From: Candidatus Colwellbacteria bacterium
GTDB taxonomy: Bacteria > Patescibacteriota > Minisyncoccia > UBA6257 > Colwellbacteraceae
Assembly: GCA_016176525.1 (NCBI GenBank)
Contig: JACOWZ010000003.1
Location: 63,554 to 127,553, forward strand
Direction: 5' to 3'
DNA length: 64,000 nucleotides
Below, in pieces: positions 20,459 to 63,435 of the stretch; within the stretch, counting starts at the first letter, position 1, and each line of letters starts with the position of its first letter. Position numbers and translations under genes: made by a program. The notes beneath the pieces were generated by a model, which saw only the letters and a program-made list of their open reading frames with translations, did no database searches and was not told the DNA's origin.

Positions 20459-21799
20459 CTATTGAAGCCAATTGTATTCCCTAGTTAAAATTGTTTCGTT
20501 ATTTTGAGTATTTATTACTCTAAATGTTACGTTACTCCCCGGCTCTATATACATATTCTTAGCCCAGCTGCCCCAGTTGGTTTTATCCATTTTTAACCAC
20601 TGTCCATTTTCAATTCGCATATCTACCCACACCGGCCCCGGGTTATTGCCCATCCAAACCTCTGCCCACCATTTATTTATATTGGGAGAAAGCTCGAAAT
20701 TTACCCGCATAGTTTGCTGTTTTTGCTCTTGTTGTTCTTCGGGTTGTGTTTCAGGCTCTGGCGCAGGTGGAGGCGTATTTGTTTTGCGCACAGAAACGCT
20801 GCGTTCCGCTTTTATACCATCCTTCCAAACAAACCATGCCGGCTTTGGCGAGCCGTCGGCTTTAGCAAGACCCCAGTAACGTTCTCCCTCACCGTAATAA
20901 TTTGCAGTGTTTGCGCTCGGATTATCTTTATAAGTTCTGTAAATTAACCCTGCAACACCTTGAGCTTTAAAAGAATCTAAGTTCGCAAAAAAGTCGCGTA
21001 GTGCGTCTGTTTGATGCTTTTCGTGGCTCCACGTCGGATAACTACTTAACGCAACATCTGATATAAGAATAGGTTTCCCGAAAATACTCTTTAACATTCT
21101 TGCCGCGGTAAGAGTCGAATCCGCAACGCTGCGGTAACTTTCTATATTATTGTGCGTTGAACCACGGAGAGCCTGGATGCTCACCATATCTGATGCGCCA
21201 ACGCTCTCATCAAAATTACTCCAGTCACTACTGCCCCAATTGCCAAAACCCACAACAACTTTTGCAGCGGGGTATTTTGATTTTATAAATCTAGCCTTTT
21301 CAGCCAAGTAATCGTCAAATGGCTCGTAGTTTGTAATATTGCCTTTATTAAATTCTGTTTCTAAAATAATAACAGCTTGTTTACCCCGCATTTTTTTATT
21401 TAGGTGATCTGTAAGTTGCACAGCAAGTGTTTGCCAGTTTTGTTTGTTTTTCCAAGTATTGTGGAGGCTAGACCAACATCCGTTTTCTACACAATTTATG
21501 CTTATGTCATCTCCCCAATAGTAAAACTGTATAACTGGCGAAACGCCCTTTTTTACGGCAGTTTCTAAAAGCTTATCCGGACCTCCCCAACCGCTTGATA
21601 ATGTCCACGAGCCAATCCAAAACATGCCATAGTCGGGTTTTATGCCCGAGCTTTCTTGCACATCGATTGAGTTGATATCCATGCCGAACTTAACCGAATC
21701 CGCAAATGCCGCCGGTGGGCGGTTAAAAAGCAGAAAAATAAAAAGTACCGGCAATGCAAGCCATATAGCAACTATTAAATAACGCCTTAAAATTGTCAT
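20459..21799 (-). CDS. secreted glycoside-hydrolase-like TIM-barrel protein with C-terminal beta-sandwich (CBM-like) domain
   Basis: Probable start MTILRRYLIVAIWLALPVLFIF (signal). Central region with W/G-rich GH-A-clan-like pattern (…ILETEFNKG…). C-terminal ~100 aa W-rich module (NKWWAEVWMGNNPGPVWVDMRIENGQWLKMDKTNWGSW) resembling carbohydrate-binding modules. Family not assigned. Confidence 0.55.
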   Translation of the reverse strand: MTILRRYLIVAIWLALPVLFIFLLFNRPPAAFADSVKFGMDINSIDVQESSGIKPDYGMFWIGSWTLSSGWGGPDKLLETAVKKGVSPVIQFYYWGDDISINCVENGCWSSLHNTWKNKQNWQTLAVQLTDHLNKKMRGKQAVIILETEFNKGNITNYEPFDDYLAEKARFIKSKYPAAKVVVGFGNWGSSDWSNFDESVGASDMVSIQALRGSTHNNIESYRSVADSTLTAARMLKSIFGKPILISDVALSSYPTWSHEKHQTDALRDFFANLDSFKAQGVAGLIYRTYKDNPSANTANYYGEGERYWGLAKADGSPKPAWFVWKDGIKAERSVSVRKTNTPPPAPEPETQPEEQQEQKQQTMRVNFELSPNINKWWAEVWMGNNPGPVWVDMRIENGQWLKMDKTNWGSWAKNMYIEPGSNVTFRVINTQNNETILTREYNWLQ

Positions 21800-21878
21800 A
21801 TTCAATTGATATGACTGACAGAACGCGGCTTTACTACAAAATAAAAGGCCCGCCATAATTGGTGGGCCGTGCGGATCT

Positions 21879-22556
21879 TTAGACCGCGACTTGCCGGCGC
21901 CGTGCAAGGAACTCTTTGCCCTTGCCGACATCGACATTAACCGGAATCCCCTGCTCGCAAAGCGGACAGATTTCTTCCGGCCATATTCGGAGGTTTAAGT
22001 TCACGAGAGCCGTTAGAATCGGCACATCACCAACGTCTTCTGGCTTTACTCCGCCTCGGTTACAGAGAGCGCCAAGTCCGATAACTTTGCCGCCCAAAGA
22101 CTGCGCGACTTCAACAGTCTTCCTTGCTGACCCGCCGCTCGTTAATATGTCTTCTACTACGAGCACGCGCTTGCCGGTGAGAAGTTTATCGTAACCGCGC
22201 TTCACAACGAAACTGTCGCCGTCTTTTTCGGCAAATAATGCGAGAGTGGGACGATTGGTTTTAAGGCCTATATGGTGCGCCACCCACTGGGAAAGGATAA
22301 TACCACCTTTCTCCGGCGCGATGACTACTTCCACTTTCTTGTCCGCAAACCTCCGAGCAATCTCTCGACAGAGACTGGACACCTCTTCTGTATACGGATA
22401 AACCGCATCTTTGTTGACGTAAGTGTGGCCGTGGAACCATCCACTGGGGCACTCTCTGGTCGGATCTTTCTGTGTATAGACAAAGTGGCTGCCCTTAAGT
22501 ATAGCCTTTGTACGAGCAAAGATTTTGAGTATGTCTTCGTTGTTCGTGCTTTTCAC
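21879..22556 (-). CDS. pyrE: orotate phosphoribosyltransferase-like type I PRTase
   Basis: PRPP-binding motif VLVVEDILTSGGS. Adjacent to pyrF. Confidence 0.7.
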   Translation of the reverse strand: MKSTNNEDILKIFARTKAILKGSHFVYTQKDPTRECPSGWFHGHTYVNKDAVYPYTEEVSSLCREIARRFADKKVEVVIAPEKGGIILSQWVAHHIGLKTNRPTLALFAEKDGDSFVVKRGYDKLLTGKRVLVVEDILTSGGSARKTVEVAQSLGGKVIGLGALCNRGGVKPEDVGDVPILTALVNLNLRIWPEEICPLCEQGIPVNVDVGKGKEFLARRRQVAV

Positions 22557-22621: not shown

Positions 22622-22652
22622 ACAAAAAATAAAAGTCCCGCGTTCACGGGAC
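22622..22652 (-). terminator. rho-independent terminator after pyrF
   Basis: GTCCCGTGAACGCGGGAC hairpin (22635-22652) followed on the minus strand by TTTTATTTTTTG. Confidence 0.6.
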
Positions 22653-22662
22653 AAATGTGCTT

Positions 22663-23439
22663 TTATGCGACCACTGCTTCTTGTTTGCGGCGATCTTCCA
22701 GACCTTGCCGAATTTCTTCGGCAATAAGATCTACAGCACGCTCCGGAGAACCAATCTCTGGTGGCGGATTTGTAATCGGCCTGCCGACTACAATATAATC
22801 GGCGCCAAGCGCGATTGCCTCGCGCGGGGTCATAACACGCTTCTGGTCGCCCTTTGCGGCCCATGCGGGCCTAACTCCAGGCGTTACCACAAGAAATTCC
22901 GGCTGGCAGTATCTGCGGATGATAGGCAGTTCGCGCGGTGAGGCAATAACCCCATCCAAACCAAGGTATCCGCCTTCCCAAGTTTCAAACTCTTGAGCAA
23001 AGAGAGCCAGATCTTTAACCAAAGTGCTTAACTCACGATCTTTAGCTTCTTGTAGCTCGGAGGGATTAGCTATGTTCATGGGCTCAAAAATGCCCATCTG
23101 TACAAAGTCGTCGTGGGAAAGGCTTGTAAGTGCGGTGACACCCAGGACAAGCGGAAAATTCTCGCCGGATTTCTTTGCAACTTTTAGCGCATCTTCCAGC
23201 ATCTTGGCCCCGCCCAACGTGTGGACGTTGAACATTTTGGCTCCCAGCTTAACCGGGGCCTTGGATGCGCCAGCGACTGTATTTGGAATATCCATAAACT
23301 TGCCGTCGTAAAAGAGTTGCTCTTTTGTAAGCCCGATTAGTTCGCGCAGGGCGTCAAGCTCACGTAGAGTCTGATCTTTTGGCGCTGTAGCAAACACCGC
23401 CAAGGTGTTGTGCATAAGCTCAAGCCCAATCTTGAACAT
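22663..23439 (-). CDS. pyrF: orotidine-5'-phosphate decarboxylase
   Basis: DGKFMDIPNTV and DYIVVGRPI motifs. The conserved N-terminus (RIIVALDVD…VGMFKIG) lies in-frame upstream of the first ATG, back to a stop at 23557-23559. Likely starts at CTG 23550 with GGAG 10 nt upstream (see findings). Confidence 0.85.
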   Translation of the reverse strand: MFKIGLELMHNTLAVFATAPKDQTLRELDALRELIGLTKEQLFYDGKFMDIPNTVAGASKAPVKLGAKMFNVHTLGGAKMLEDALKVAKKSGENFPLVLGVTALTSLSHDDFVQMGIFEPMNIANPSELQEAKDRELSTLVKDLALFAQEFETWEGGYLGLDGVIASPRELPIIRRYCQPEFLVVTPGVRPAWAAKGDQKRVMTPREAIALGADYIVVGRPITNPPPEIGSPERAVDLIAEEIRQGLEDRRKQEAVVA

Positions 23440-23632
23440 GCCGACACGGTCTTTTAGCTTTTCAACAATGCTTACAGCCTTTGACGGCAGGTCAACGTCT
23501 AGCGCTACGATGATGCGCTCTTGTGGTTCTAGATTTTCGGTTCGTTGCAGTTTTCCTCAACTCCTATTTTTGGAGGTTCTGCAAAGAGACTAGCATAAAA
23601 AGCCGGTGGATGTAAATTACCGCAAAGTGTTC

Positions 23633-24175
23633 TTATTCTGCTCCTGCTTCAATACCTCTGTCTATAATTTTGGAGCCAAGCTCTGTACTTTTTTGTCTTG
23701 CAATTTCTGCACGCGCAGCAACTGCACCCCTTATTTCAGAAACAGCTGCTTTTGCCTCTTCCTCTGCCTCTCCTTGTAGCCTGTCTAAAATACGTTCGTG
23801 GGCCATAAGTGACACAGCAAGGTTTGATGCAATATCCGCGGCCGCAGTTACATTACCCTTCTCTTCAAGCTCGGTGATATGCGCTTCTACACGATCTGCA
23901 TGCGCGGCAAAATTAGAACCTACCTGTGCACGAGCATCAGCGTTCATTCGGTTTTCTATTGTAAGTTGTTCGGCCTCTTCCAAGCGGCGTTCTAAAAGCC
24001 TTGTCGCCCACTTTGCTTTAGATGTTGCCCCAAATGCTAGAGCTCCGCGAACTTGCTCGTTAACGCCCACTTTTATTGGATAGAGAGCGTCTCCCGGCAA
24101 AGAATTCTCTGCGGCAAAGGATACTCCACCCACTGATAACGCAATTAATAATGTAATTATTGATAATAATTTCAT
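23633..24175 (-). CDS. secreted paralog of the anti-sigma periplasmic domain (DUF5667-like)
   Basis: Signal peptide then AENSLPGDALYPIKVGVNEQVRGALAFGA, identical to the extracytoplasmic domain start of the upstream 445-aa protein. The first 98 nt of this region are identical at nucleotide level. Confidence 0.6.
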   Translation of the reverse strand: MKLLSIITLLIALSVGGVSFAAENSLPGDALYPIKVGVNEQVRGALAFGATSKAKWATRLLERRLEEAEQLTIENRMNADARAQVGSNFAAHADRVEAHITELEEKGNVTAAADIASNLAVSLMAHERILDRLQGEAEEEAKAAVSEIRGAVAARAEIARQKSTELGSKIIDRGIEAGAE

Positions 24176-24194
24176 AAACTTATTATAACATAAT

Positions 24195-24219
24195 AAAAAC
24201 CCCGCAGTGCGGGGTTTTT
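24195..24219 (-). terminator. rho-independent (bidirectional-looking) terminator between the two paralogs
   Basis: AAAAA-CCCCGC-AGT-GCGGGG-TTTTT. Confidence 0.5.
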
Positions 24220-24222
24220 ATT

Positions 24223-25560
24223 TTAGAGACTGACCTCTGCTTCAACTTCGACTTCAGCTTCAGCTTCTGCGCTATCTGATTCTGTTTTAGTTTCGTTATT
24301 AGATTCTGCTTTAGCTTGAGATTTTGCTTCGCTGTTAGATTTACCTCTGGTATCGGATTCTGCTTCAATTTCAATTTCTGTTTCGCTTTCAAACTCAGTG
24401 TCGCTTTCAGTCTCAACTTCTGCATCGCCATCAGAATCTACCTCAACCTCGGCCTCCCCTTCTGTTCTAACTTCCGTTTTGATCTTACCGTTATTACTAT
24501 TTATTCTAATCTCAATTATTCCCGGAGGGCCCAAGAAACGGACCCGTGTGTCAATCTTTATAGATGCGTTTATAAGCGCTCTTGCTTCGTTTGCAACTCT
24601 AATCGCTTGGTTTGCGAGGTTAAACGCTTCTGCCTTAGCCTCTGCTTCCAGCTTTGCTTCTGCTTGAACTACCAAGCTTTCTGCAGTCGAGACGCGCGCC
24701 TCTGCGTCAGCTATAGCTTCTACATCTAAGCTATCTTGCTTTCTTTCAAGCTGGGACTTTACAGAAGCTATAACATTTTTTGCAGCATTTATTCCGCCGC
24801 GGGCTTCAACTTCAATTTTTGCCTTAACTTTTACGTCTTCATCAGCACCCTTCTTTACAACATCGGATTCAAGTTTCGTGCGCTTTTCCGCAGCAGTCTT
24901 ACCGCGAGCTTCAACTGAACCCTTTAGAGTGTTTACATGGAATTTAATTGACTCATCAACACTCGCCTGTAATCTTTCTAAGATTTGCTCGTGAGCTCTT
25001 AGTGATGCTTCAAAGCGGCTGGCAATATCAGCAGCGGAGGTAAAGTCATCTTTCTCTTCAAATTCGGCTATGCGAGCCTCCACGCGCTCAGCATGGGCTT
25101 TAAAGTTAGCTTCTATCCTTTCGCGCACATCAGCATCCATGCGCGTTTTTGCAGAAAGTTGTTCGGCCTCTTCAAGCCTGCGTGCTGCAAGCTGTGTGTC
25201 TAACTTTGCCTTTGCTTTAGCGCCAAATGCTAGAGCTCCGCGAACTTGCTCGTTAACGCCCACTTTTATTGGATAGAGAGCGTCTCCCGGCAAAGAATTC
25301 TCTGCGGCAAAGGATACTCCGCCGCTAAGTGATAATGCTATTAATAGTGCAATTATTGGCATTGGTATTATTCTTAAACTTCCTATTAAGCCTTCTAGTG
25401 AAAACTTCTTCGACCTTTCACTTATTAGACGTCTTGTTTCGGGAGCCCTTACATCACCTTGCATAAAGTTAACCAGATTCTCACGAATACGAGATTTACT
25501 CTCTTTAGAGAGTTTGGCTTCCGGCAAATTCTTAAATTTTTCAAAAAAATTCAGGTTCAT
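24223..25560 (-). CDS. putative anti-sigma factor: cytoplasmic N-domain, single TM, DUF5667-like extracytoplasmic domain, acidic tail
   Basis: 445 aa. ~70-aa cytoplasmic segment, TM (IIPMPIIALLIALSL), then the SLPGDALYPIK domain with long coiled regions. C-terminal E/D/S/T-rich tail. Starts 14 nt downstream of the ECF sigma gene. Confidence 0.6.
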   Translation of the reverse strand: MNLNFFEKFKNLPEAKLSKESKSRIRENLVNFMQGDVRAPETRRLISERSKKFSLEGLIGSLRIIPMPIIALLIALSLSGGVSFAAENSLPGDALYPIKVGVNEQVRGALAFGAKAKAKLDTQLAARRLEEAEQLSAKTRMDADVRERIEANFKAHAERVEARIAEFEEKDDFTSAADIASRFEASLRAHEQILERLQASVDESIKFHVNTLKGSVEARGKTAAEKRTKLESDVVKKGADEDVKVKAKIEVEARGGINAAKNVIASVKSQLERKQDSLDVEAIADAEARVSTAESLVVQAEAKLEAEAKAEAFNLANQAIRVANEARALINASIKIDTRVRFLGPPGIIEIRINSNNGKIKTEVRTEGEAEVEVDSDGDAEVETESDTEFESETEIEIEAESDTRGKSNSEAKSQAKAESNNETKTESDSAEAEAEVEVEAEVSL

Positions 25561-25574
25561 TTGTTTGTTTGATT

Positions 25575-26072
25575 CTACATATACTTGCGTAATTTTTTAA
25601 TTGCCCTGTTTAACTTTACGGAAACGTTGTTCGGGCTAATATCTAGAGCCTCTGCAATATCCTTTGGCTCTAGACCGTCTAGATAACGCAGGGTTATAAT
25701 CTCTCTCTCCCATTTATTAAGACGCAGCATCTTGTCCTTTATTTCAGACAAGACTGCTCCCGCTTCTGCCTTCTTGTCTCCCCTATCCGGCAGATTAAAG
25801 CCGACTTCTTCAATTAAGTAATCCAAGCTTTGTTCCTTGCGCTTACGCGAATCGTCAATAATAAGGTTTGTAAGGACCCTGTATAAAAAAGCGCGCATAT
25901 TTTTTACCTCTTTGCCTTCGCTTACATACTGCCAGGCTCGCATAAAAGTCTCTTGGGTAAGCTCCTCGGCGCGCGACTTCTCATATACCCTAAAGTAGCA
26001 ATGCTTATAAAGCGCATCGGCATACAGTTCGTAGGCCTCAAGGAATTCGCTTTTTTTGTCATTACTCAACAT
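25575..26072 (-). CDS. ECF (sigma-24 type) RNA polymerase sigma factor
   Basis: 165 aa with region 2 (ELTQETFMRAWQ) and region 4 HTH (ITLRYLDGLEPKDIAEALDISPNNVSVKLNRAIKKLR). Confidence 0.85.
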   Translation of the reverse strand: MLSNDKKSEFLEAYELYADALYKHCYFRVYEKSRAEELTQETFMRAWQYVSEGKEVKNMRAFLYRVLTNLIIDDSRKRKEQSLDYLIEEVGFNLPDRGDKKAEAGAVLSEIKDKMLRLNKWEREIITLRYLDGLEPKDIAEALDISPNNVSVKLNRAIKKLRKYM

Positions 26073-46033: not shown

Positions 46034-48985
46034 CTACGGAATTACCAGAACGTGCGTGCCGGCAGTACTACCTACAACAGCATTTGTAGAAGGATCTGTG
46101 GCAGTTGCTTGAATAGAGATTGTGTAAGCGCCCGAGTCAACGCCGCTGCCTACAACAACTCCCATTGTGTAAGTGCAAGGCGATGAGAGCGATGGCTCAC
46201 AACCGCTAGTTGAGCCAAATGAAACAGTGATGTCTTCTGTGGGCGATACAGAACCAGCTAGAGATATATTAACAAAACCAAGCGTGCGCTTTGTTACATG
46301 TATGTTTGTAAGATACGCGCCAGATGTCGTTTGAATTTTTATTGCTGGGTCTGACGCAACAGTAAGGTTAGAAGAAACCACTAGAGTAAATGTTGTTTCC
46401 CCGCTTGCGCCAGTGCCAGCTTCCGTAGCGCTTAACGTAACAGAGTAAGTGCCAGGCAAAACATCTGCCGCTGTATTAATGGTCACTTCACGCGCGCATG
46501 GGTCCGTCGGGTCTAGAGAACAAGTTGAATTCGGCGAGAAGCTAACCGTTATGCCCGGGTTAGCCGGCGAAACAGTTGCAGACAAGCTTGCCGTCGAAGG
46601 CTCTGTTGTAATTTTTGTTACAGTAAGATTAGTCGAAGTAGATGAACCCTGCATTATTGTGTCTGACGGCGGATCCGCAAATATAACTATGCCGGAAGAT
46701 ACAACCAACTCAAATGTAGCAGCGCCTTTCTGTGTAGCATCACCAGACCCAAGAACCGTAATTGCATAGGTGCCAACAGGGGTTGCTGCGGTTGTTGTGA
46801 CGTTCAGGTCAATAGAACATGTAGGCGTGCAACTGGTTTCTGAAAGAGTCGCTGTAATCGTAGGTTCTGCAGGGTTAACTTGTGTAGATAGCGCCACCGG
46901 ACCTTGAGCTCCAGTAAGTTCGGCTACTGTAACAGAAGTTTCAGCGCTTCCACCGGAGGAAACCGTTGCAAGCGGCGGAACAGAAGCCATTACAATAGTT
47001 GAAGGGTTAACTGTAAGTTCATATACCGCTTCTGCCGTAGCGCCAGACCCAGCTTCAACCGCACTAACTTTTATTGTGTAGGCGCCGGCAGGAGTAAGAG
47101 CGGAAGTAATTATATTAATTGCAGATGCGCATGACTGCTCTGCCCCACCAGGCGTACATGTTGTTGGAGAAAATGTTGTAGAAATTGAAGGCTCTGCAGG
47201 GAAAACGCCGGCGGAGAAAGTAACTAATTGCGGAGAACCAGTAAGCTTTGTAACAGTAACCTCTGCTGAAGAGCTGCCGCCTTGGTCAATATTCCCTGCC
47301 ACGGGGTCAACTGTTGCGACAAGAGTTGAGCTTACAACCGCAAGCGTATAAGTGGTACTGCCGGTGTCTGTTCCACCAACGCCATTTCCGGTGATTGTAA
47401 TAGTGTACTGACCCATCGGCGTCTCTGGTGTTGTTGCAACAACCATATCTGAAGTGCAGTCAGGCTCTGGGTCGCAGCTAACCGGCGCAAGCGAAACTGC
47501 AACGGTTGATTCTGCAGGCAATACACTGCTTGTAAGAGAAACGTCCGCAGACTCCCCTGTAACTTGGTGGACACCTATGATAGATGCAGTAAACTCGCCT
47601 GCCACAACTGAACCGTGTGAAGGGCTAGAGTCTAAAACTATTGTCGCGGGTTCAATAACCAATGCATATGTTGTCTCTTTCGTATTACCGTTCGGATCGG
47701 TGCCTATAATTGTAATGTCATACGAACCCGCTGGGGTTTCTGGTTCGGTTGTAAGAAGCATTATAGATGCGCAACTATTTACAGCTGGATCTAGTGGATC
47801 ATTAGGAGTGCACGATACAGGGTTAAATGTTACACCTACGGTAGGTTCAGTGGGTAAGATGTTCGCAGAAAACCCAACCGCTGCAGGTAACCCTTGCAGT
47901 CTTGTAACGACAACGCTACTTGTTACATCACTACCTTGGCCAACTTCCGAAGTTGACGGGTCAGCTTCAATACTAAAATCAAAACTGTTGACGGTTAGGG
48001 TGTAGACTGCAGACTGGTACTCGCCGCTTGTCGCCTCTGTGCCAGTAATTGTAATATCATAGTTGCCCGGAGGGGTAAGCGTTGTTGTTGAAACTGTCGC
48101 GTTAGAGGTGCAGGGTATTTCTATTGTCGGCATGCAAGAAGAAGGGTCAAATGCAACAGATACGCTAGCTTCTACAGGACTTACTTCGTATGAAAATGCC
48201 ACACTCTGCGGTACACCCGTGAGTTTGGCCACTGTTACTGTTGTATCTGCACTCTCTCCCGGATCAACAGATTCCCCGGATGGATCAACCGAAATTATAA
48301 ATGTTGAGGGCTCATAGAAACCTTCGTAGTAGCTTTGGTAGTAGCCTTGGCCATAGTAATAGCCTTGGCTGTAGTAGTAGCCTTGGTAGTAGCCCTGATA
48401 ATAACCTTGGCTGTAGTAGTAGCCTTGGCCATAGTAATAGCCCTGATAATAGCCTTGAGAGTAATAGTAGCCTTGGCCATAGTAATAGCCCTGATAATAG
48501 CCTTGAGAGTAATAGTAGCCTTGAGAGTAATAGTAGCCTTGGTAGTATCCCTGATAATAGCCTTGATAATAGCCCTGCGTGTAGTAAACACCCTCGGAGT
48601 AATAAAGGGCTTGGTAATAACCTTGATAGTAGCCTTGGGTGTAGTAAACGCCTTGGGTGTAGTAGATACCCTGGTAATAGCCTTCGGAGTAATAAAGGGC
48701 TTGGTAATAACCCTCATAAAGACCTTCGTAGTAGCCTTGAGAATAGCCGCCTCCACCTCCTCCTCCGCCTCCACCTCCTCCGCACCCGAGCTCAAACATT
48801 CTACCTGCTGAATCTCCATCAGTTTCACCATCAGTAGTAAGGGCTAAAAACTCTATATTATCATCGCATTCTATTAAAACCGCCTCAGCAGTATTAACCG
48901 CGGTTGTAACCGCGGCTAAAAAAGAGAGAGAAACAACGCCTAAAAATGCAAATCGTATTAGCGTTGTATTCTTTTTGAGCTTCAT
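46034..48985 (-). CDS. giant secreted surface protein: signal peptide, Gly12 tract, Tyr/Gly/Gln-rich repeat domain, then ~8 tandem Ig-like beta-sandwich domains
   Basis: 983 aa. Residues 69-80 are GGGGGGGGGGGG. Residues 81-226 are (G/S/Q)YY(Q/E/S)G-type repeats with ~45 % Tyr. Downstream ~90-aa modules recur with pattern …VTV.KLTG.PQ.V.FS…P.EP.I…F.P..CTP…C…T….G.Y.ITI…. Confidence 0.75.
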   Translation of the reverse strand: MKLKKNTTLIRFAFLGVVSLSFLAAVTTAVNTAEAVLIECDDNIEFLALTTDGETDGDSAGRMFELGCGGGGGGGGGGGGYSQGYYEGLYEGYYQALYYSEGYYQGIYYTQGVYYTQGYYQGYYQALYYSEGVYYTQGYYQGYYQGYYQGYYYSQGYYYSQGYYQGYYYGQGYYYSQGYYQGYYYGQGYYYSQGYYQGYYQGYYYSQGYYYGQGYYQSYYEGFYEPSTFIISVDPSGESVDPGESADTTVTVAKLTGVPQSVAFSYEVSPVEASVSVAFDPSSCMPTIEIPCTSNATVSTTTLTPPGNYDITITGTEATSGEYQSAVYTLTVNSFDFSIEADPSTSEVGQGSDVTSSVVVTRLQGLPAAVGFSANILPTEPTVGVTFNPVSCTPNDPLDPAVNSCASIMLLTTEPETPAGSYDITIIGTDPNGNTKETTYALVIEPATIVLDSSPSHGSVVAGEFTASIIGVHQVTGESADVSLTSSVLPAESTVAVSLAPVSCDPEPDCTSDMVVATTPETPMGQYTITITGNGVGGTDTGSTTYTLAVVSSTLVATVDPVAGNIDQGGSSSAEVTVTKLTGSPQLVTFSAGVFPAEPSISTTFSPTTCTPGGAEQSCASAINIITSALTPAGAYTIKVSAVEAGSGATAEAVYELTVNPSTIVMASVPPLATVSSGGSAETSVTVAELTGAQGPVALSTQVNPAEPTITATLSETSCTPTCSIDLNVTTTAATPVGTYAITVLGSGDATQKGAATFELVVSSGIVIFADPPSDTIMQGSSTSTNLTVTKITTEPSTASLSATVSPANPGITVSFSPNSTCSLDPTDPCAREVTINTAADVLPGTYSVTLSATEAGTGASGETTFTLVVSSNLTVASDPAIKIQTTSGAYLTNIHVTKRTLGFVNISLAGSVSPTEDITVSFGSTSGCEPSLSSPCTYTMGVVVGSGVDSGAYTISIQATATDPSTNAVVGSTAGTHVLVIP
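48305..48781 (-). repeat. tandem 12-18-nt coding microsatellite-like repeats (Tyr/Gly/Gln domain plus Gly12 tract)
   Basis: Iterated units such as tagtagccttggccatagtaatagccctgataatagccttgagagtaa… on the plus strand, translating to GYYQGYYYSQGYYY… on the minus strand. Confidence 0.75.
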
Positions 48986-50985: not shown

Positions 50986-52251
50986 TTGGATATGCCGAAC
51001 CCATCGCAAAAGAATAAAAGCGGGGCAACGGCAATGTCGCTTCTTATATCTTCTGTAAGCATAATAATTCTTGCAGAAGTCTGGATGCTTTTGGGGTTTA
51101 AAATACCTATTCCCTTTTTTGACACTGCAACTCTCTATGCTTCGGAAATTAAATATTTAGAAGATAACAATCTCTCTTTTTACGAACTTGCAAAATATTT
51201 TACAAAAATCTCTAATGAAGAAGGCGCAGAATATGCCTATAATCTATTAAAAATTGCGCCAATCCCACCAAATACGGATATGCACCTCCTTGGGCATGTT
51301 GTTAGCGATGAATTATACAAACAAAAAGGCAGCGAGGGCATAAAAATTTGTACGCCGGACTTTAGAAATGCATGCTCGCACTCAATCGTGGTTGGGTTAT
51401 TACTAGAAAAAGGCGATTCCGCAATGGACGAAATATCCGAAGCGTGCCGCCTTGCGCCCGGGGGCAGGGGCGCATACACTATGTGCTTCCACGGTTTGGG
51501 CCATGGCGTGCTTGCCTACAGCGACTATGACATGCAGGATGCTGTTGAGCTTTGCGCAACAACCGGCACAAAGGAATATCTCCAAAGAGAATATATTGAG
51601 TGCGTTGGCGGAACAGTTATGGAAATTGTCGGCGGCGGATTCCATAACCAAGAATTGTGGCAAAAAAAATCGGATGAATATTTAAGTGTGTCTGACCCGC
51701 TTTATCTATGCTCAAAAGAAATAATGCCCGAAATAGCGCAAGCACAGTGTTATACATATTTAACTCCGCATCTTTTTAAACGCGCTGGCGGCAGTTTAAG
51801 TAATTTAACTCCCGATGTTTATGAGCGCGCGTTTGTATATTGCGAAGGCATACCAAAGAGTGAAGCTTCTTTAAGGGCAAGTTGCTATGGTGGATTTGGC
51901 AAGGAATTCGTTGTGCTCGCAAAAGCGCGAGATGTTCGCCAAATTGGCAATATGACAGACGAAGAACTTGCGAAGGTGTACGAATGGTGCAGTTTAGCGC
52001 CGCATAGCGAGGGTATAAACGCGTGTATTAATACATCCGCGGCTTCAATATTTTGGGGCGGCGAAAATGAACCTGTTGCTGTTATTAAATTTTGCAGTAT
52101 TGTGGAGGACACTTCTATACAGCAAGAATGTTTTGCGAACCTCTTTAATTCCGTAAAGTATTACATAAATGACCTTGCTTATTTAGAAAATTTTTGTGCA
52201 AAAGTACCGAATAATTATAAAGGCACTTGCGAAGAAAAATTAGTAAACTAG
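50986..52251 (+). CDS. Cys/His-rich membrane-anchored paralog 1 (CxHGxGHG family, unknown function)
   Basis: 421 aa. TM at ~17-38 (alternative start ~51034). Motifs HLLGHVVSDELY, ACSHSIVVGLL, MCFHGLGHGVLAY. Many paired Cys. Confidence 0.65.
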   Translation: MDMPNPSQKNKSGATAMSLLISSVSIIILAEVWMLLGFKIPIPFFDTATLYASEIKYLEDNNLSFYELAKYFTKISNEEGAEYAYNLLKIAPIPPNTDMHLLGHVVSDELYKQKGSEGIKICTPDFRNACSHSIVVGLLLEKGDSAMDEISEACRLAPGGRGAYTMCFHGLGHGVLAYSDYDMQDAVELCATTGTKEYLQREYIECVGGTVMEIVGGGFHNQELWQKKSDEYLSVSDPLYLCSKEIMPEIAQAQCYTYLTPHLFKRAGGSLSNLTPDVYERAFVYCEGIPKSEASLRASCYGGFGKEFVVLAKARDVRQIGNMTDEELAKVYEWCSLAPHSEGINACINTSAASIFWGGENEPVAVIKFCSIVEDTSIQQECFANLFNSVKYYINDLAYLENFCAKVPNNYKGTCEEKLVN

Positions 52252-52255
52252 AGAT

Positions 52256-53299
52256 ATGAAAGCATATAAAATATTAGGAATAGCTGGAGCAGTGGTTTTT
52301 ATAATTTTAGGTTTTTTTGCAGTTATAAATTTTAGCACAAACTCTCACGATAAATACCCCTTATCTTCCGGTACGGCAAGTTCTAATGGAGCGATGAACC
52401 CGGTAGAAGAACGCAATAAGTGGGCAGGGCTTATTGATAAATTTGGGCCGGAGTATGCATACGCCGAATTTAAAAAAGAATATGCACCTACCCACTTTGG
52501 AATTCAGCACGCCGCCGCGCACTTGGTTGGAGAATTACTGTACGACAAACTTGGCGTAGATGGAGTAACGGTTTGCGACTCCACTTTTGCATTCGGGTGC
52601 TACCACAGCTTTTTTGGCAAAGCTCTTGCAGTAAATGGATTGAGTATAATTAAAAAACTTGATGAGGCATGCATTCAAGCATACGGCCCGCTTGGCACAG
52701 GATGCACGCACGGCATAGGCCACGGGCTGGTGGAATATTTTGGCCACCAACAATTAATTAAAGCACTTGAGGCTTGTACGCTTACAACGCAGGTAAAAAA
52801 GCTCTTTGGCTGCACATCTGGCGTATTTATGGAATACAACGTGCCAATTGTGTTTGATGGCCCAACTGCGAAAACAGAAATTAGAGAACTTAATGCCGCA
52901 AATCCGCACGAGCCGTGTAATACAATTGTGCCGGAGAAATTCAGAGAATCTTGCTACTACGAAATGGGCCAATGGTGGGATAAAGTTTTTAATAAAGATT
53001 ACAAACACATTGGACTCTTATGCGAAGAAGCGCAATCTGAATACAGAGAACCGTGTTATTTAGGTATAGGCAATGTTGCCGCGCCGTCAAATGAATATAA
53101 TGTACAAGAAACTATAAATACATGTCTTCTTATGCCAAATGAAGATGCAAAACTCTTATGTAGGGCAGGGGCATCTTGGAGTTTCTTTGCAGTGCCCGAG
53201 CAGAGGCAACTATCCCCTAAACTTTGCGAAGGTTTGGTAAGCGCAGAAACACACAGGTGCGCGCAAAAAGCCGACCTTATTGGAGTTGGAAGAACATAA
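52256..53299 (+). CDS. Cys/His-rich membrane-anchored paralog 2
   Basis: 347 aa. N-terminal TM. QHAAAHLVGELLY, GCYHSFFGKALA, GCTHGIGHGLVEY in the same order as paralog 1. Confidence 0.65.
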   Translation: MKAYKILGIAGAVVFIILGFFAVINFSTNSHDKYPLSSGTASSNGAMNPVEERNKWAGLIDKFGPEYAYAEFKKEYAPTHFGIQHAAAHLVGELLYDKLGVDGVTVCDSTFAFGCYHSFFGKALAVNGLSIIKKLDEACIQAYGPLGTGCTHGIGHGLVEYFGHQQLIKALEACTLTTQVKKLFGCTSGVFMEYNVPIVFDGPTAKTEIRELNAANPHEPCNTIVPEKFRESCYYEMGQWWDKVFNKDYKHIGLLCEEAQSEYREPCYLGIGNVAAPSNEYNVQETINTCLLMPNEDAKLLCRAGASWSFFAVPEQRQLSPKLCEGLVSAETHRCAQKADLIGVGRT

Positions 53300-53304
53300 A
53301 TAAA

Positions 53305-54513
53305 ATGCTAAAACGTTACCTTATAACCGGCCTCTTAATAATACCAATCAGTTTAATTGGATTTTTGTCTTACCAAAATGGAGGCACGGCTTATGTTGTA
53401 AGCCCTTTACAGCTTGAAGCTTATGCCAACGAAGTGATAGAAATATGTACGAATGATTCTTACAGGCCGTCTTGCTATGACAAAGAGATACCAAAGCTGA
53501 TGGACAATATATCTATGGAAGATGCTTTTAAAGTTACTGTAATTATTCAGCAAAAAGACACATCATACCCGTACTGCCACGTACTTGGGCATAACTTAAG
53601 TGCAAGAGAAGTACAAAAAGACCCATCCAACTGGAAAGAAGTCTTAGCGCGATGCCCCAGTGGAGTTTGCTCAAACGGATGTTTACACGGCGGCTTGCAG
53701 GAAAAATTCCGCGGTGAATACCCAACAGAAGAAGAATTGGTAGCTCTAAAGCCGGACCTCTTCAACATTTGTGAGAAAAAAGAAAACTGGAACCCTACCG
53801 GCCTTGAGCAAGCGTCTTGCTACCATGCCCTCGGGCACTTATCTATGTATCTTACAAAGGCTGATATTTATAAATCTCTAGATCTTTGCAAAGAGATGGC
53901 GCTAAAACCCGACGGTAGAGATTATCAGCAACTTTGCTTTGACGGGGCATTTATGCAGATCTTTCAGCCGTTGGAACCGGAAGATTTTGCGCTTGTTGAG
54001 GGCAAAGAGCCGGCGAAAGAAGAAGTATATTCTTTTTGCAGCAAGTTTACAGGACAGCAAAGAGGTTCGTGCTGGAGTGAGACTTGGCCTTTATTTAGAG
54101 AGGAACTGCAAAAACCGGAAGGCCTTGTGGCGCACTGTGAGAAATCAGATCTGGCTGAACGACAGAGATGCTACAATGCGCTTGTTTATGTTCTAACTGC
54201 ACAATTCAGTTTTGATTCGGAACGCATTAAAAACTACTGCTCTGGCCTTCCTGCAGGCACGAGAGAACTCTGTTTTGCAAACGCTTCGTCACGAATGATA
54301 GAAACTGACTACAGGAACATAGACTTAGCGGTACAACTCTGCAGCGAAGCAGCGCTATTTGATAAAGATGGTGAGTGCTTCCAAGAACTTATTAAATATT
54401 CAACATTTAATTTCCATGCCGGATCTGAACAATTCTTTAAAATATGCAACGCTATGCCAGAACCTTGGAGTAGTAAGTGTTTAAACAACCCAAACGCTAA
54501 TTATGCCAATTAA
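53305..54513 (+). CDS. Cys/His-rich membrane-anchored paralog 3
   Basis: Probable start MLKRYLITGLLIIPISLIGFL at 53305 (ORF track 53224 overlaps paralog 2). YCHVLGHNLSAREV, GCLHGGLQEKF, SCYHALGHLSMYL. Confidence 0.65.
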   Translation: MLKRYLITGLLIIPISLIGFLSYQNGGTAYVVSPLQLEAYANEVIEICTNDSYRPSCYDKEIPKLMDNISMEDAFKVTVIIQQKDTSYPYCHVLGHNLSAREVQKDPSNWKEVLARCPSGVCSNGCLHGGLQEKFRGEYPTEEELVALKPDLFNICEKKENWNPTGLEQASCYHALGHLSMYLTKADIYKSLDLCKEMALKPDGRDYQQLCFDGAFMQIFQPLEPEDFALVEGKEPAKEEVYSFCSKFTGQQRGSCWSETWPLFREELQKPEGLVAHCEKSDLAERQRCYNALVYVLTAQFSFDSERIKNYCSGLPAGTRELCFANASSRMIETDYRNIDLAVQLCSEAALFDKDGECFQELIKYSTFNFHAGSEQFFKICNAMPEPWSSKCLNNPNANYAN

Positions 54514-55966
54514 ATTAATAGCCGCTATATTTGTACCGGCAATAATAGGAATAGGATTCTTGGCAATGCCCGATCCAGAAAACAAGACCAACCTAACCAA
54601 TAATGTTTATATAGTAGAGCTTAAAGATGATGGATTTTACCCAATGGAGATTACTGTACAAAAGGGCGACTCGGTAAAATTTATAAGTGATGCATACGAT
54701 TATTTCTGGCCTGCAAGCGACCCGCACCCAACCCACGAGTTTTTAGGCGGCTTTGACCCAGAAACTGCAATTGAACGCGGTGAAAGCTGGGCTTACACTT
54801 TCAATGAAACCGGATCTTGGAACTACCATGACCACATCCACGTATCATTTAAAGGGACTATAAATGTTGTGAGTAATTCTTCGCAACAAGAAACTTCGCT
54901 TACAGAAGATTGCGAATCCGTAACAGACGAGAATAAGAAAGCATATTGCTGGTACGAAGCCATTAAAGATAAGGCGAAAAATCAGAGTATTGACGCAGCA
55001 TTTTCATTATTTACAAAAGTTTATGCAGAGGGAGCTCCCCTAGGCTGCCACTGGACATCGCACTTAATTGGAGAAGAAGCTTTTAAGAAATTTATAGAAG
55101 GCGAAAGGTTCCAAATTACGAACGCAACATCTTATTGCGGGTATGGCTTTTACCACGGCTTTATGGAGCCGTTGCTCCGTAAAAATCCAGATACAAAGCT
55201 TGCCATTGATTTTTGCGAAGAAGTAGCGCGGCAATTGGGAGACGACGGCAGAAACAACTGCTACCATGGCATCGGCCACGGCTTTAGCGAAGACCCGCCG
55301 CCAGCGGAGACTTTTGGGAACGCGAACCTAATGGCGAGGCCGGGCTTAAGCGTTTGCGAAGGTTTATTTGAAAAAGTTTCCCAGAGGTATTTGGAAACTT
55401 GCGCAACTGGCGTATACACTGTTGTCGCCCATTTTATAGAAGAAGGGCTCTATGGGTTGGAGAAGCTGGATCACCACGACCCGTTTAAATTTTGCAGAAC
55501 ACAACCCAAAAAATATGAAGTTGCATGCCATGGAGAATTTGCTCCAAAATTAGACTTAATAACAAACTGGGATGTTTCAAAAGTGCCAAGCTTTATAGGC
55601 GAACTAGAGGATGTATACACTAAAGAAATAGTAATAAGAGGAGCAGTTGGAGCAATGATGCAAAGGGACGTAGCTAAAAAAGATCATACAGCTTATATTC
55701 TAGGCTGTAGAACATTTCCAGAAGACCTACGCATTATTTGCCTTAAGGGTATTGTTTGGGGATTTATGATGCACGGATTACCCGAACAAGAGTACATAAA
55801 ACTATTGAAATTCTGCGAATCACCGATGACAAAAGTTGAAGAAAACTTCTGCTATACAGAAAGCTTTTCCAGATTCAAGGCAGTTTATGCCCCGGGAAAA
55901 TTCCAGACGATATGCTCTCTAGACGACAAATATAAAGAGTATTGCAACACAGCAAATGAAAACTAA
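54503..55966 (+). CDS. Cys/His-rich paralog 4 with N-terminal cupredoxin-like domain
   Basis: 487 aa. TM, then ~95-aa beta-sandwich-like domain (FYPMEITVQKGDSVKFISDAYDYFWPASDPHPTHEF…WNYHDHIHVSFKGTINVV). Then GCHWTSHLIGEEAF, YCGYGFYHGFMEPLL, NCYHGIGHGFSED. Confidence 0.65.
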   Translation: MPIKLIAAIFVPAIIGIGFLAMPDPENKTNLTNNVYIVELKDDGFYPMEITVQKGDSVKFISDAYDYFWPASDPHPTHEFLGGFDPETAIERGESWAYTFNETGSWNYHDHIHVSFKGTINVVSNSSQQETSLTEDCESVTDENKKAYCWYEAIKDKAKNQSIDAAFSLFTKVYAEGAPLGCHWTSHLIGEEAFKKFIEGERFQITNATSYCGYGFYHGFMEPLLRKNPDTKLAIDFCEEVARQLGDDGRNNCYHGIGHGFSEDPPPAETFGNANLMARPGLSVCEGLFEKVSQRYLETCATGVYTVVAHFIEEGLYGLEKLDHHDPFKFCRTQPKKYEVACHGEFAPKLDLITNWDVSKVPSFIGELEDVYTKEIVIRGAVGAMMQRDVAKKDHTAYILGCRTFPEDLRIICLKGIVWGFMMHGLPEQEYIKLLKFCESPMTKVEENFCYTESFSRFKAVYAPGKFQTICSLDDKYKEYCNTANEN

Positions 55967-57386
55967 AGCTATATTTGTAATTGCGGGTTTAATAGCGATT
56001 ACAGTTGCGGGAATATACGCAACCGACATTCAATCTCTAAAGCAAGGAGAGCGCGTGATTGAGTTCCGTGAAGACGGCTTTTCCCCCAACGAGCTAATGA
56101 TAAAGCTCGGCGAAAGTGTTACTTTTGTCGGGAAAATTGACAGGGCTTTTTGGCCGGCCTCCGACATGCACCCAACACACCTTAAATACCCGGAATTTGA
56201 CCCCAAAGAACCGCTACCTCCGTTTGGCAGCTGGTCGTTTAAGTTTACTCAAGCCGGAGATTGGGCTCTCCACGACCATCTAGCGCCATATTTTACCGGC
56301 GTTATACATGTAAAAGCTGAAAGTGAGTCTAGTAAAAGCGACCCTTGCGCGGAGAACTCAAATTCTTTGGACTGCTCGGAAAAATTAATACTCTCTACTA
56401 TAAGAGCAAAGGGGCTGGAGCCTGCTTTTGATTTGCTTGCTCGGATATACGATCAAAACCCTGAATTCCCAGGGTCGTGCCACACCGTTACACACAATAT
56501 GGGAATAGTTGCATATAAAAACTTTCTTAAAGACAAAGATGCTGTTATAACCCCTAAAACCGCTTTTTGTGCAAGCGGATTTTACCACGGTTTTATGGAA
56601 GCGCTTTTAACTGCTAATAGAGATCCAATAGCTGCAAAAGAATTCTGCGCTTATATAGATGAAAGATTGAGTGTATCTGCGCCTGACGCGGCGCTTCAAT
56701 GCTATCATGGCATCGGCCACGGCGCGATGGACATTGCAATATTGTCTGCTGTGGATAAAAGCGAAGAATCACTCATAGAACCGGCTTTAAGGCTTTGCGA
56801 AAAAACTTCGGATTCTGAAGAACAGTTGTATAGATGTTCATCTGGAATTTTTAACGGTATAGCTAACTTTTACATTACCGGCGAGCACGGATTATCTGCG
56901 AACAAAAAAAATCCTGCATGGGTTTGCGATAAACAGCCGGATACATATAAAGAAAGCTGTTATGGAAATATGAACTCCGTAATGTTGTGGGCTGCCGGCA
57001 ATGAATTTAGTGACGCTATAAAGTTTGTGGAAAATATTAAAAATGATTTGTATGCAATACCATCCGCCAGATATTTGGCAGGGCTCGCTGCTCTAAAGTT
57101 TTCAAACAACTACGACCAAGCCATAACTGCCTGCAGAGCAACGCAAGAAAGGCTCTACAAATCTTGCATAGAAGGCTTTGCGCACGGATTTTTAGAACAT
57201 GGAACTCCCGGGCTTGAATATAAAGATGCTTTTAGTTTTTGCAAAGCCGAATTAATGAGCCTAAACGAAAGAGAGGTATGTTTTAAATATGTTTTATCTA
57301 ATATACACGGATGGTATGCCGCAGAAAAAGCAAAAAACATTTGCGAATCTACAGAAGTAAATTACAAACACTACTGTAAGAGTTAG
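55956..57386 (+). CDS. Cys/His-rich paralog 5 with N-terminal cupredoxin-like domain
   Basis: 476 aa. TM, then (FSPNELMIKLGESVTFVGKIDRAFWPASDMHPTHLKY…WALHDHLAPYFTGVIHV). Then SCHTVTHNMGIVAY, FCASGFYHGFMEALL, QCYHGIGHGAMDIA. 11-nt overlap with paralog 4. Confidence 0.65.
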   Translation: MKTKAIFVIAGLIAITVAGIYATDIQSLKQGERVIEFREDGFSPNELMIKLGESVTFVGKIDRAFWPASDMHPTHLKYPEFDPKEPLPPFGSWSFKFTQAGDWALHDHLAPYFTGVIHVKAESESSKSDPCAENSNSLDCSEKLILSTIRAKGLEPAFDLLARIYDQNPEFPGSCHTVTHNMGIVAYKNFLKDKDAVITPKTAFCASGFYHGFMEALLTANRDPIAAKEFCAYIDERLSVSAPDAALQCYHGIGHGAMDIAILSAVDKSEESLIEPALRLCEKTSDSEEQLYRCSSGIFNGIANFYITGEHGLSANKKNPAWVCDKQPDTYKESCYGNMNSVMLWAAGNEFSDAIKFVENIKNDLYAIPSARYLAGLAALKFSNNYDQAITACRATQERLYKSCIEGFAHGFLEHGTPGLEYKDAFSFCKAELMSLNEREVCFKYVLSNIHGWYAAEKAKNICESTEVNYKHYCKS

Positions 57387-57417: not shown

Positions 57418-57529
57418 TTGCTGGCAAAACCTACTTTCGCCGATAAACAACTATCATCGGCACGCAACACTTTCACTTCTCTGTTCGGAATGGGAAGAGG
57501 TGGGCCATATTGCGTTAAATCACCAGCAA
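57418..57529 (-). rRNA. rrf: 5S ribosomal RNA
   Basis: Minus-strand sequence TTGCTGGTGATTTAACGCAATATGGCCCACCTCTTCCCATTCCGAACAGAGAAGTGAAAGTGTTGCGTGCCGATGATAGT…GCCAGCAA matches the 5S consensus (CCCACCTGATCCCATGCCGAACTCAGAAGTGAAAC…GCCGATGGTAGT) with terminal helix I pairing. Confidence 0.8.
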
Positions 57530-57580
57530 ATCAAAGATTTCCAAATTTAGAACAAACATTGTAATGACCAGTTTCTCACT

Positions 57581-60678
<3,098 letters not shown>

Positions 60679-61003
60679 TGAGAAACTGATCATTACAATG
60701 CTTGTTCTGCCTCGATTCCACAAAGACCCTTAATCTTAATTAGAATCGAGCTATATAGGACCTCCCCTGAAAATATAATTAATGTATCGCGGCTAACTAT
60801 ATTTTCAGGGTAGGTCCAGGTTTTTAATAATCAGTCTTCCAGGAATTTAAAAAACCCCTAGAGTAGGGGCTCTAAAAGACGCGAAAAAACGCGCCTCAGA
60901 TCCCCGCCTTAAGTGTTTTTGTTACAAATATCATCTCCAGTTGTATTGTCATTATAAAAGATAGAGTTTTAATGTCAAGAGGTATGCAAGCCAAAAACAA
61001 AAA

Positions 61004-61060
61004 GCCCCGTCCTGTCTTGCTAAGCCCTCACTGCTTAGCAAAACAGAAACGGAACTTTTT
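61004..61060 (-). terminator. candidate terminator downstream of the 61100..61798 gene
   Basis: TTGCTAAGC-AGTGAGG-GCTTAGCAA hairpin on minus followed by GACAGGACGGGGCTTTTTGTTTTTGG. A second hairpin CCCCTA-CTC-TAGGGG + TTTTTT lies at 60849-60870. Confidence 0.35.
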
Positions 61061-61099
61061 ACATGAAACATTATAGCACACCCCGCACTGCGGGAGAGG

Positions 61100-61798
61100 C
61101 TATCTTTTTGATTCCATTTGGTCTCTAAACCTAGAGAGCAAGTGAGCAGCATATTCTTTGCCGCCCAAACCAAATGCTATACCTCCTGCCAAAGCTAACA
61201 TAGCTATTACGCCGGTCACTAGGGTCTGTATTATCTCAACAGCGATACCAAGCTGTATTAAAGCAGCTCCAATACCGGTGATTATAATAGCCCACCACGC
61301 AACCGAACCCAAAGTTTTGCCTGCCTGCAGTTTTGCTCCCATTACAGAAGCTTGAATAATTCCCTTCAAGAAGCTGCCCAAAAGGACTGCTCCAAGAAGA
61401 ATTATAACTGCCGCTACAACTCTTGGGATATACGTAAGAAGAGGTGCAACTAACGCAGAGACTGTGCCGCTGCCGAACAAAATGTCGGTAACCGCCAAAA
61501 CTGTTACGATGACGAAGAACCAGTAAGTTAATCGTCCAAAAAATCTGGAAATGCTAAGGCGCAAACCAGACCTTTCAAACTCTTTATCTAACCCAGTTCT
61601 CCCTACTATAGAATCAACTTTTGTGGCAACCAACACTCTTTCAACCAAGTGGCCTAAACCAGAAGCAACTATTAAACCTACAATGAAAATTAAAAGGCCT
61701 CCAAAAAGCACAGGAACATACATAGCAATTATCTGCCAAACTTCCAATAAAGAGGCCGATACAGCTTCTGTCCAGTCCTGAAATGACGTTGTAACCAT
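61100..61798 (-). CDS. hypothetical polytopic membrane protein with internal duplication (mechanosensitive-channel-like TM repeats?)
   Basis: 232 aa, ~5 TM helices. Two halves with similar G/A/I/L-rich helices. No catalytic motif. Confidence 0.55.
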   Translation of the reverse strand: MVTTSFQDWTEAVSASLLEVWQIIAMYVPVLFGGLLIFIVGLIVASGLGHLVERVLVATKVDSIVGRTGLDKEFERSGLRLSISRFFGRLTYWFFVIVTVLAVTDILFGSGTVSALVAPLLTYIPRVVAAVIILLGAVLLGSFLKGIIQASVMGAKLQAGKTLGSVAWWAIIITGIGAALIQLGIAVEIIQTLVTGVIAMLALAGGIAFGLGGKEYAAHLLSRFRDQMESKR

Positions 61799-61975
61799 AA
61801 TCTATATTTTATATTCTAGAATTTTGTTTCGACCTTTTTGATTATAACGGTTTAAATTATAGCAAAAAATGCCCAAAAAACGGGTTTTTAAGTGTGGATA
61901 ACTAAAAAGCGCTATTTTGCCCCGAACCACAAAATAAACACACCTCCTCGCGCCTTAAACTAGCTAAAATTTAGC

Positions 61976-63361: not shown

Positions 63362-63364
63362 ACT

Positions 63365-63435
63365 GTGGACCTAGCCAGAATCGAACTGGCGTCTCTACAA
63401 TGCGAATGTAGCGTCTTACCACTGGACCATAGGCC
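63365..63435 (-). tRNA. tRNA-Ala (anticodon CGC)
   Basis: GGGCCTATGGTCCAGTGGTAAGACGCTACATTCGCATTGTAGAGACGCCAGTTCGATTCTGGCTAGGTCCA. G3:U70 pair. Anticodon loop TTCGCAT. Confidence 0.85.

Follow-up and report, generated by a model that had tools for sequence, protein, structure and literature searches.

The pyrF gene of an uncultivated CPR bacterium is an otherwise intact uridine-synthesis gene that lacks an ATG, GTG or TTG codon 5´ of its essential first strand. The gene lies on the minus strand of the window, a term that denotes here the whole 64,000-nucleotide stretch that was analysed. The segment upstream of the first canonical start is conserved protein-coding sequence, and its bases recur in independently assembled data. 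A functional full-length pyrF started at the near-cognate codon CTG 23550 on a leadered mRNA is the reading that we favour, tentatively and with a likelihood placed a little short of even. Both the use of this codon and the sufficiency of the protein made from it are what we infer from the sequence.

Reading frame and start region of pyrF

The elements of the start region are as follows.

22663–23550, minus strand: proposed full-length pyrF CDS with the CTG 23550 start, 295 codons plus TAA
23437–23439, minus strand: ATG (M40), the first canonical start, used by automatic gene callers and giving the truncated 258-aa protein P0001
23440–23514, minus strand: codons for β1 (IIVA), the invariant Asp20 (GAC 23499–23497) and α1, all 5´ of the first ATG
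23509–23514, minus strand: ATC ATC (I15, I16), near-cognate alternatives for the start where β1 begins, in a poor start context
23530–23532, minus strand: CTA (Leu), aligned with Met1 of nearly all homologues in protein and DNA alignments
23548–23550, minus strand: CTG, the near-cognate codon favoured as the start; the β1 Asp follows 17 codons later
23551–23560, minus strand: out-of-frame TTG (23560–23558), followed by AGG and an A4 run (23554–23551)
23555–23564, minus strand: purine-rich, SD-like GGAGTTGAGG just 5´ of CTG, with GGAG 10 nt and GAGG 4 nt before CTG
23557–23559, minus strand: in-frame TGA, the upstream bound of the pyrF frame
23564–23596, minus strand: putative 10-codon upstream ORF from ATG 23596 to TAG 23566–23564, its stop 13 nt before CTG

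On the minus strand, 39 in-frame codons extend from TGA 23559–23557 to ATG 23439 and read GKLQRTENLEPQERIIVALDVDLPSKAVSIVEKLKDRVG; none of the 39 is ATG, GTG or TTG. The minus-strand reading thereby bears out the initial annotation, which had described an N-terminal extension of pyrF free of these three codons. The positions that it gave for CTG (23550–23548), the two ATC codons (23514–23509), TGA (23559–23557), ATG (23439) and GGAG (23564–23561) are all correct. Its length of 37 codons back to the TGA holds if the codons are counted from the CTG onward, but the true count from TGA to ATG is 39. The only single-mismatch codon 5´ of the conserved EPQER segment is CTG 23550 (GGA AAA CTG CAA CGA ACC GAA AAT), and the ATC codons at 23514 and 23511 stand 5 and 4 codons before the β1 Asp, respectively. 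The out-of-frame TTG 23560 overlaps the in-frame TGA, and its own frame, without a slip, stops after 22 codons at TGA 23494–23492. If tRNA-Lys slipped by +1 on AAA-A, the ribosome would reach the pyrF frame exactly at CTG.

No start codon is present among the ten codons between TGA 23559 and the next in-frame upstream stop, TAG 23592–23590. An alternative genetic code or readthrough of the TGA was rejected, with no start before TAG 23592 and with the long conserved ORFs intact under table 11. By our own arithmetic under a uniform codon model, a run of 39 random codons without a start has a chance of roughly 15% and is not rare. Chance does not account for the location of an essential, conserved part of the enzyme 5´ of every canonical start.

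Two Logan contigs (SRR12113430 and SRR12113383) match the window at 100% identity along 4.4 kb and 1.6 kb, with the start region included. A sequencing error had been named at the outset as a possible refutation; since two separate assemblies show the same bases, a random error is unlikely. Public protein collections hold this pyrF solely as the truncated call of 258 residues (P0001).

The upstream segment encodes the N-terminus of OMP decarboxylase

Profiles, invariant columns, sequence identity and an AlphaFold model agree with the earlier proposal that the extension is the conserved N-terminus of OMP decarboxylase. The Pfam profile PF00215 (OMPdecase) scores 140.7 bits against a cut-off of 27, and its alignment starts at residue 14, which corresponds to profile position 2. 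Addition of the upstream residues raises the TIGR01740 score from 117.7 to 135 bits (cut-off 92.3) and the NF001273 score from 166.6 to 189 bits, just under the cut-off of 193. The product of ATG 23439 misses profile positions 1–46 of the 233 in the NCBIfam pyrF model. In an alignment with 19 homologues, all of the invariant family columns within the segment are kept (I16, V17, A18, D20, V21, A27 and G39). The mean identity of the segment to these homologues is 59%, compared with 54% for the rest of the protein, and the value for the segment is near those found between the homologues themselves. The active-site residues D20, K42, D84, K86 and D89, which represent the β1 Asp, the β2 Lys and the D-x-K-x-x-D motif, occupy invariant columns and are all present; D20 is encoded 5´ of ATG 23439. 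Other CPR PyrF proteins are 50–57% identical to the protein, and their source names include Berkelbacteria, Pacebacteria, Uhrbacteria and Portnoybacteria.

The AlphaFold model (pLDDT 93, pTM 0.90) has eight β-strands that alternate with helices. DSSP assigns β1 to residues 15–18 and α1 to residues 24–34 of the model, with pLDDT values of 97–98, and M40 (ATG 23439) opens β2. OMP decarboxylases in the PDB match the protein by sequence with E = 4e-37. The β1 Asp is part of the active-site network in the solved OMP decarboxylases. Because β1, α1 and Asp20 are encoded 5´ of ATG 23439, a product from this codon would miss one strand, one helix and an active-site Asp. The full-length protein is a type-1 OMP decarboxylase with a predicted (β/α)8 barrel and putative catalysis. 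It resembles the type-1 enzymes described by PF00215, TIGR01740 and NF001273 in its catalytic and invariant residues and in the predicted eight-stranded β/α barrel, and differs from them in the lack of a canonical start and in an NF001273 score slightly below the cut-off. It also carries, after β2, an insertion of about 25 residues that is characteristic of the CPR clade. A separate 9-residue insert, FETWEGGYL (residues about 190–198; window 22960–23010, minus strand), lies before the conserved GLDGV motif and is absent in 19 of the 19 aligned homologues.

Position of the start in homologues

Nearly all homologues in the 19-member alignment begin with M-E-[AP]-x-[ED]-[RK]-IIVALD. The alignment places the N-terminus 5´ of ATG 23439, as originally proposed, but the family Met falls on CTA 23532–23530 and not on CTG 23550. 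The nearest relatives listed, L165 and L166, start with ATG at this family Met1 and carry an SD sequence 6–8 nt upstream. At Met1, the DNA alignment pairs aaatCTAgaacca of the window with aaatATGgaacca of L165, and the start regions read aaatCTAgaaccacaagag in the window, aaatATGgaaccaaaagaa in L165 and gattATGgaagcgcaagaa in L166. Homology of the 5´ leader with that of L165 is merely suggestive and was used solely for the ATG–CTA alignment.

CTA 23532 differs from ATG by two changes and is not a credible start. That the family start position is occupied by CTA and not by CTG counts against the CTG reading. After CTA, the residues E-P-Q-E-R continue to match the family pattern E-[AP]-[KQR]-[ED]-[RK], which suggests that these codons are translated and hence that the start lies 5´ of 23529. 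In the 160 pyrF loci listed, the nearest canonical start, which is not necessarily the true one, is located 1–25 codons before the Asp with a mode of 10–12; the values 1 and 3 fall within the IVALD motif itself. The N-terminus given by CTG, 17 codons before the Asp, is inside this range. Among the matches listed from the protein search and from the scans of genome and metagenome collections, which are mostly distant pyrF genes, no relatives above about 57% identity were present except identical copies. Our confidence in the CTG start is limited because the matches listed include no close relative that could show conservation of this codon.

Start-site context in the window

SD-like 4-mers precede 4 of the 46 starts in the window, compared with 7.6% of random 15-nt windows, and almost no SD-like 5-mers in the window stand before a real gene start. 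TATAAT-like boxes that end 4–13 nt before the start are found in 13 of the 46 genes against a background of 5.5%. By these counts, the genome looks SD-poor, with many leaderless or very short-leader mRNAs. Starts that illustrate this character include those at 2811, 3368, 10440, 24175, 32361, 46021 and 61798. The closest pyrF relatives, from other CPR lineages, have clear AGGAGG sites, unlike the genome of the window.

The initial annotation had cited GGAG about 10 nt before CTG in support of this start. Its position is right, but as an argument it has little force, with SD-like 4-mers at background level in the window. Because SD motifs are not enriched at the starts of the 46 window genes, GGAG and GAGG provide no real support for CTG, and the SD argument was dropped.

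A start-context PWM built from the 46 window start contexts discriminates weakly, with scores of 1.1 ± 3.7 for true starts and -3.9 ± 4.4 for internal codons. CTG 23550 scores -0.86, TTG 23560 -1.04, ATC 23514 -9.0, ATC 23511 -6.8 and ATG 23439 -7.2. In this matrix, CTG ranks at percentile 28 among true starts and at percentile 74 among internal codons. The ATC codons lie at the 2nd–4th percentile of true starts, the worst context of all candidates. No TAnnnT or -10-like box was seen by eye 6–12 nt before CTG or the ATC codons, and a promoter scan found none there either. A CTG start would consequently be located on a leadered mRNA, since no -10 box lies at leaderless distance.

The predicted fold of the leader RNA is not better than that of shuffled sequences (z = 0.73). 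In this non-significant fold, CTG is mostly paired within a UUGCAG/CUGCAA stem (P(unpaired) 0.08), and AUCAUC is exposed in the loop of an AGCGC/GCGCU hairpin (P(unpaired) 0.72–0.78). The fold mildly favours ATC and is given little weight. It is a matter of speculation that translation of the 10-codon upstream ORF would open the predicted stem that holds CTG. A known RNA leader or riboswitch was discarded as an explanation, given this z value and the lack of an Rfam match in 23400–23700 even at E ≤ 1.

About 25 window genes with Pfam-anchored N-termini, e.g. BipA, TopA, SSB, RecO, FtsW and DprA, start canonically where expected. Other window ORFs also have long upstream stretches without a start, and those stretches are plainly non-coding. 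Odd start codons throughout the genome were therefore rejected as an explanation; pyrF is the sole exception found in the window.

Initiation at CTG and its precedents

In the favoured reading, the ancestral ATG of pyrF would have been lost and the enzyme most likely is still made at a low level. fMet-tRNA would initiate at CTG 23550–23548 on an mRNA with a 5´ leader, which may be transcribed from its own promoter or jointly with the DUF5667 gene upstream. The predicted product comprises 295 residues that begin with (M)QRTENLEPQERIIVALD.

Near-cognate initiation is established in other bacteria. In Escherichia coli, CUG, AUA, AUC and AUU initiate at 1–2% of the AUG level, or at 0.02–3% in low-copy constructs, and ACG gave Met-initiated GFP (10.1101/063800). 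Natural CTG starts are found in plasmid repA, in ano of E. coli and in rpsL of Deinococcus deserti (PMC5960689), and four CUG-initiated proteoforms were described in Salmonella (PMC11005335). In D. deserti, 60% of the mRNAs are leaderless; one CTG-started and one ATC-started gene, both confirmed by N-terminal peptides, are carried on leadered mRNAs, and CUG reportedly fails to drive the translation of leaderless mRNAs in E. coli (PMC4007540). A first search of the literature gave nothing relevant on non-canonical starts in Patescibacteria.

The window pyrF shares with the cases in E. coli, D. deserti and Salmonella a conserved coding segment 5´ of every ATG, GTG and TTG and an in-frame single-mismatch codon, and it shares with D. 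deserti a leaderless-rich genome, the CTG and ATC starts there being on leadered mRNAs. It differs in that its CTG is away from the usual start position of the family, and in that the cases elsewhere rest on N-terminal peptides, reporter fusions and ribosome profiling, while the window pyrF is known from sequence alone. That CUG is a poor initiator counts against the CTG reading. Among housekeeping genes, infC (IF3) of E. coli has a conserved AUU start that is autoregulated via IF3, and its use depends on initiation fidelity. The pyrF gene resembles infC as a housekeeping gene on a non-canonical start, but nothing ties PyrF to initiation fidelity. As bacterial genes with CTG and ATC starts have been documented before, the window pyrF is a further instance and no new mechanism. 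If CTG is used, the gene would represent a natural case of initiation at CUG, in a genome with apparently little reliance on Shine-Dalgarno pairing.

ACG at the start position in two other CPR lineages

Among the best 120 protein matches, one other entry, P0086 (247 aa), is N-terminally truncated. Its contigs L003 and L004, from two runs, read aatAGGAGGtatgatatACGacagctaaagacaaaataatc and have no canonical start before IIVALD; an ACG codon is located 8 nt after a perfect SD sequence. P0048, which is 87% identical to P0086, starts with MEAKDRIIVALD, and the ACG stands where P0048 has ATG. One more of the 160 pyrF loci listed from the genome and metagenome collections, L094, is without a canonical start and reads tgTAAGGAGGTGtagttACGgaagcaaaagacagg. 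Its relatives L011 (86% identity) and L107 (79% identity to L094) have ATG at exactly the ACG codon, with the same SD spacing. The two sites are the following.

L003 134–150 (equivalent to L004 64–80): ACG site with a perfect SD 7–8 nt upstream
L094 1484–1500: ACG site with a perfect SD 7–8 nt upstream

L003 and L094 are just 50% identical, which indicates independent ATG-to-ACG events. At the level of sequence, these loci demonstrate a recurrent substitution of the start codon in CPR pyrF. A gene of this kind accounts for about 1–2% of the CPR-type pyrF genes sampled, too small a number for further conclusions. The two loci say nothing on the expression of the ACG alleles, because any codon one base away from ATG is near-cognate by definition. 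Together with the window gene, the two ACG cases hint that symbionts with small genomes tolerate decay of the pyrF start codon. A further idea is that the change of the pyrF ATG to a near-cognate codon (CTG here, ACG at Met1 with perfect SD spacing in two unrelated lineages) would be a recurrent, selected CPR feature that holds a very proficient enzyme at trace level, or that ties PyrF synthesis to initiation fidelity or to translation of a short upstream ORF; we consider this a long shot.

P0001 (258 aa) and P0086 (247 aa), the product of L003, are both held in protein collections without the first strand and the active-site Asp. Such truncated pyrF calls can be scored as defective or be mis-modelled in metabolic reconstructions of CPR bacteria, and the presence of pyrE and pyrF bears on the nucleotide salvage capacity of these organisms. 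A start-less pyrF misleads gene callers and is an oddity of a known kind; its start is useful for annotation, and the understanding of CPR translation initiation gains modestly.

Alternative explanations

A recent start loss, by which pyrF would be a young pseudogene or a barely expressed gene so far free of other lesions, appears rather unlikely but carries real weight. Two one-hit routes to it are visible in the sequence: a change of ATG to CTG at 23550, or a 1-nt insertion that converted AAA to AAAA 3´ of an ancestral in-frame TTG 23560. The arrangement is shared by no diverged relative among the matches listed, and the ATG-to-ACG changes in the two other CPR pyrF lineages, seen against relatives at 86–87% identity, form the pattern expected of slightly deleterious start mutations that become fixed by drift when populations are small. 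Since de novo nucleotide synthesis is commonly missing in CPR bacteria, pyrF may be under weak selection. A loss is opposed by the 295 codons without stop or frameshift, by the retention of all invariant residues, by the occurrence of the same allele in two separate read sets and by the intact state of the adjoining pyrE-like gene. If an ATG once stood at 23532, that codon took two hits while the rest of the gene stayed undamaged, which speaks for continued selection. The intact ORF, an N-terminal segment that is unrelaxed and no more diverged than the remaining protein, and the two-hit CTA beside the conserved EPQER together argue against simple decay, but a single ATG-to-CTG change that killed the gene recently would look identical to CTG initiation. 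The 258-residue product of ATG 23439 as a real functional protein is barely conceivable: it is the sole ORF that a standard gene caller can yield, and the form found in databases, yet it is without β1, α1, the invariant Asp20 and the first 46 profile positions, its ATG has a poor context, and the codons upstream of it are conserved as protein.

Initiation at ATC 23514 or 23511, giving M-I-V-A-L-D or M-V-A-L-D right at β1, is improbable. ATC is a documented rare bacterial start (10.1101/063800; PMC4007540), the two codons lie in the mostly unpaired loop of the predicted hairpin, and the nearest canonical start is 4–5 codons before the Asp in some pyrF loci; the fold in question is not significant, the start context is the worst of the candidates, and the family-conserved EPQER codons would be left untranslated. 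The initial proposal of a CTG or ATC start 5´ of ATG 23439 is hence retained for the upstream N-terminus and for CTG as the best single candidate, and weakened for ATC. Initiation at TTG 23560 followed by a +1 slip on A-AAA-A (23554–23551), with M-R-K-L-Q-R-T-E-N... as the product, is very unlikely. TTG is canonical and its context is close to that of CTG, perfect re-pairing of tRNA-Lys in the +1 frame is possible on the A4 run directly before CTG, and in L003 an out-of-frame ATG likewise overlaps the in-frame TGA. Programmed +1 frameshifting of the prfB type is a known system, and the window resembles it in having the canonical start TTG 23560 in one frame, with the functional protein encoded in +1, and an AAA-A that allows re-pairing. 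Unlike prfB, the window shows neither an in-frame stop nor a hungry codon at the shift site and lacks a conserved stimulator, and its arrangement is not conserved among relatives. The A site holds ACU, which is neither a stop nor a known hungry codon, no conserved stimulator was found and none is arguable in an SD-poor genome, and an A4 run seldom causes a slip spontaneously. The out-of-frame GTG of L094 occupies another frame and is immediately followed by TAG, so that the NTG-A geometry is not a common feature. A shared signal of NTG-A overlapping the in-frame TGA in the window and L003 was therefore judged a coincidence, and a prfB-like programmed shift is kept as a minor alternative only, given the same frame difference, the next 0-frame codon ACT and the lack of a conserved stimulator. 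A sequencing or assembly artefact, in which the real genome has a canonical start, e.g. ATG at 23550 or AAA in place of AAAA, has a slimmer chance still. All of the data are metagenomic, and the two Logan runs have neighbouring accessions and possibly belong to one study with the window, so that a shared systematic error is conceivable; against it stand the complete identity of two separately assembled runs to the window along 4.4 kb and 1.6 kb and the lack of a comparable defect in any other window gene. A 4-nt homopolymer is also not an error-prone context for short reads.

Neighbouring genes and other features of the window

Two features lie 3´ of pyrF.

22635–22652, minus strand: intrinsic-terminator-like hairpin with a T-run, just 3´ of the pyrF stop (terminator scan)
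21879–22556, minus strand: intact pyrE-like orotate phosphoribosyltransferase gene with a GTG start (PF00156)

The pyrE-like gene scores 105.6 bits with TIGR01367 (pyrE_Therm), under the cut-off of 150. The first-ATG call of the 492-aa ORF at 20459–21937 (minus strand) overlaps its 3´ end by 59 nt (21879–21937); the real start of this ORF is probably further downstream, near the hydrophobic segment MTILRRYL... The region 5´ of pyrF (23633–26072, minus strand) encodes an ECF-type sigma factor (25575–26072) followed by two DUF5667 paralogues (24223–25560 and 23633–24175), which share about 127 nt at 79% nucleotide identity (25128–25252 and 23935–24059). No terminator is predicted between the upstream DUF5667 gene and pyrF.

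No 16S rRNA gene is present within the 64-kb window. At 57419–63436 (minus strand), a 23S rRNA of 3021 nt, compared with a 2925-position model, is followed by 5S, and two protein-sized ORFs (61100–61798 and 61976–63361) are located between tRNA-Ala(CGC) and the 23S rRNA. This suggests an rRNA arrangement that is unlinked or carries an insertion. A 983-residue ORF at 46034–48985 (minus strand) contains runs of GGAGGAGG-type Gly-rich repeats and has no Pfam match, as is also the case for several large ORFs near it (50986–57386).
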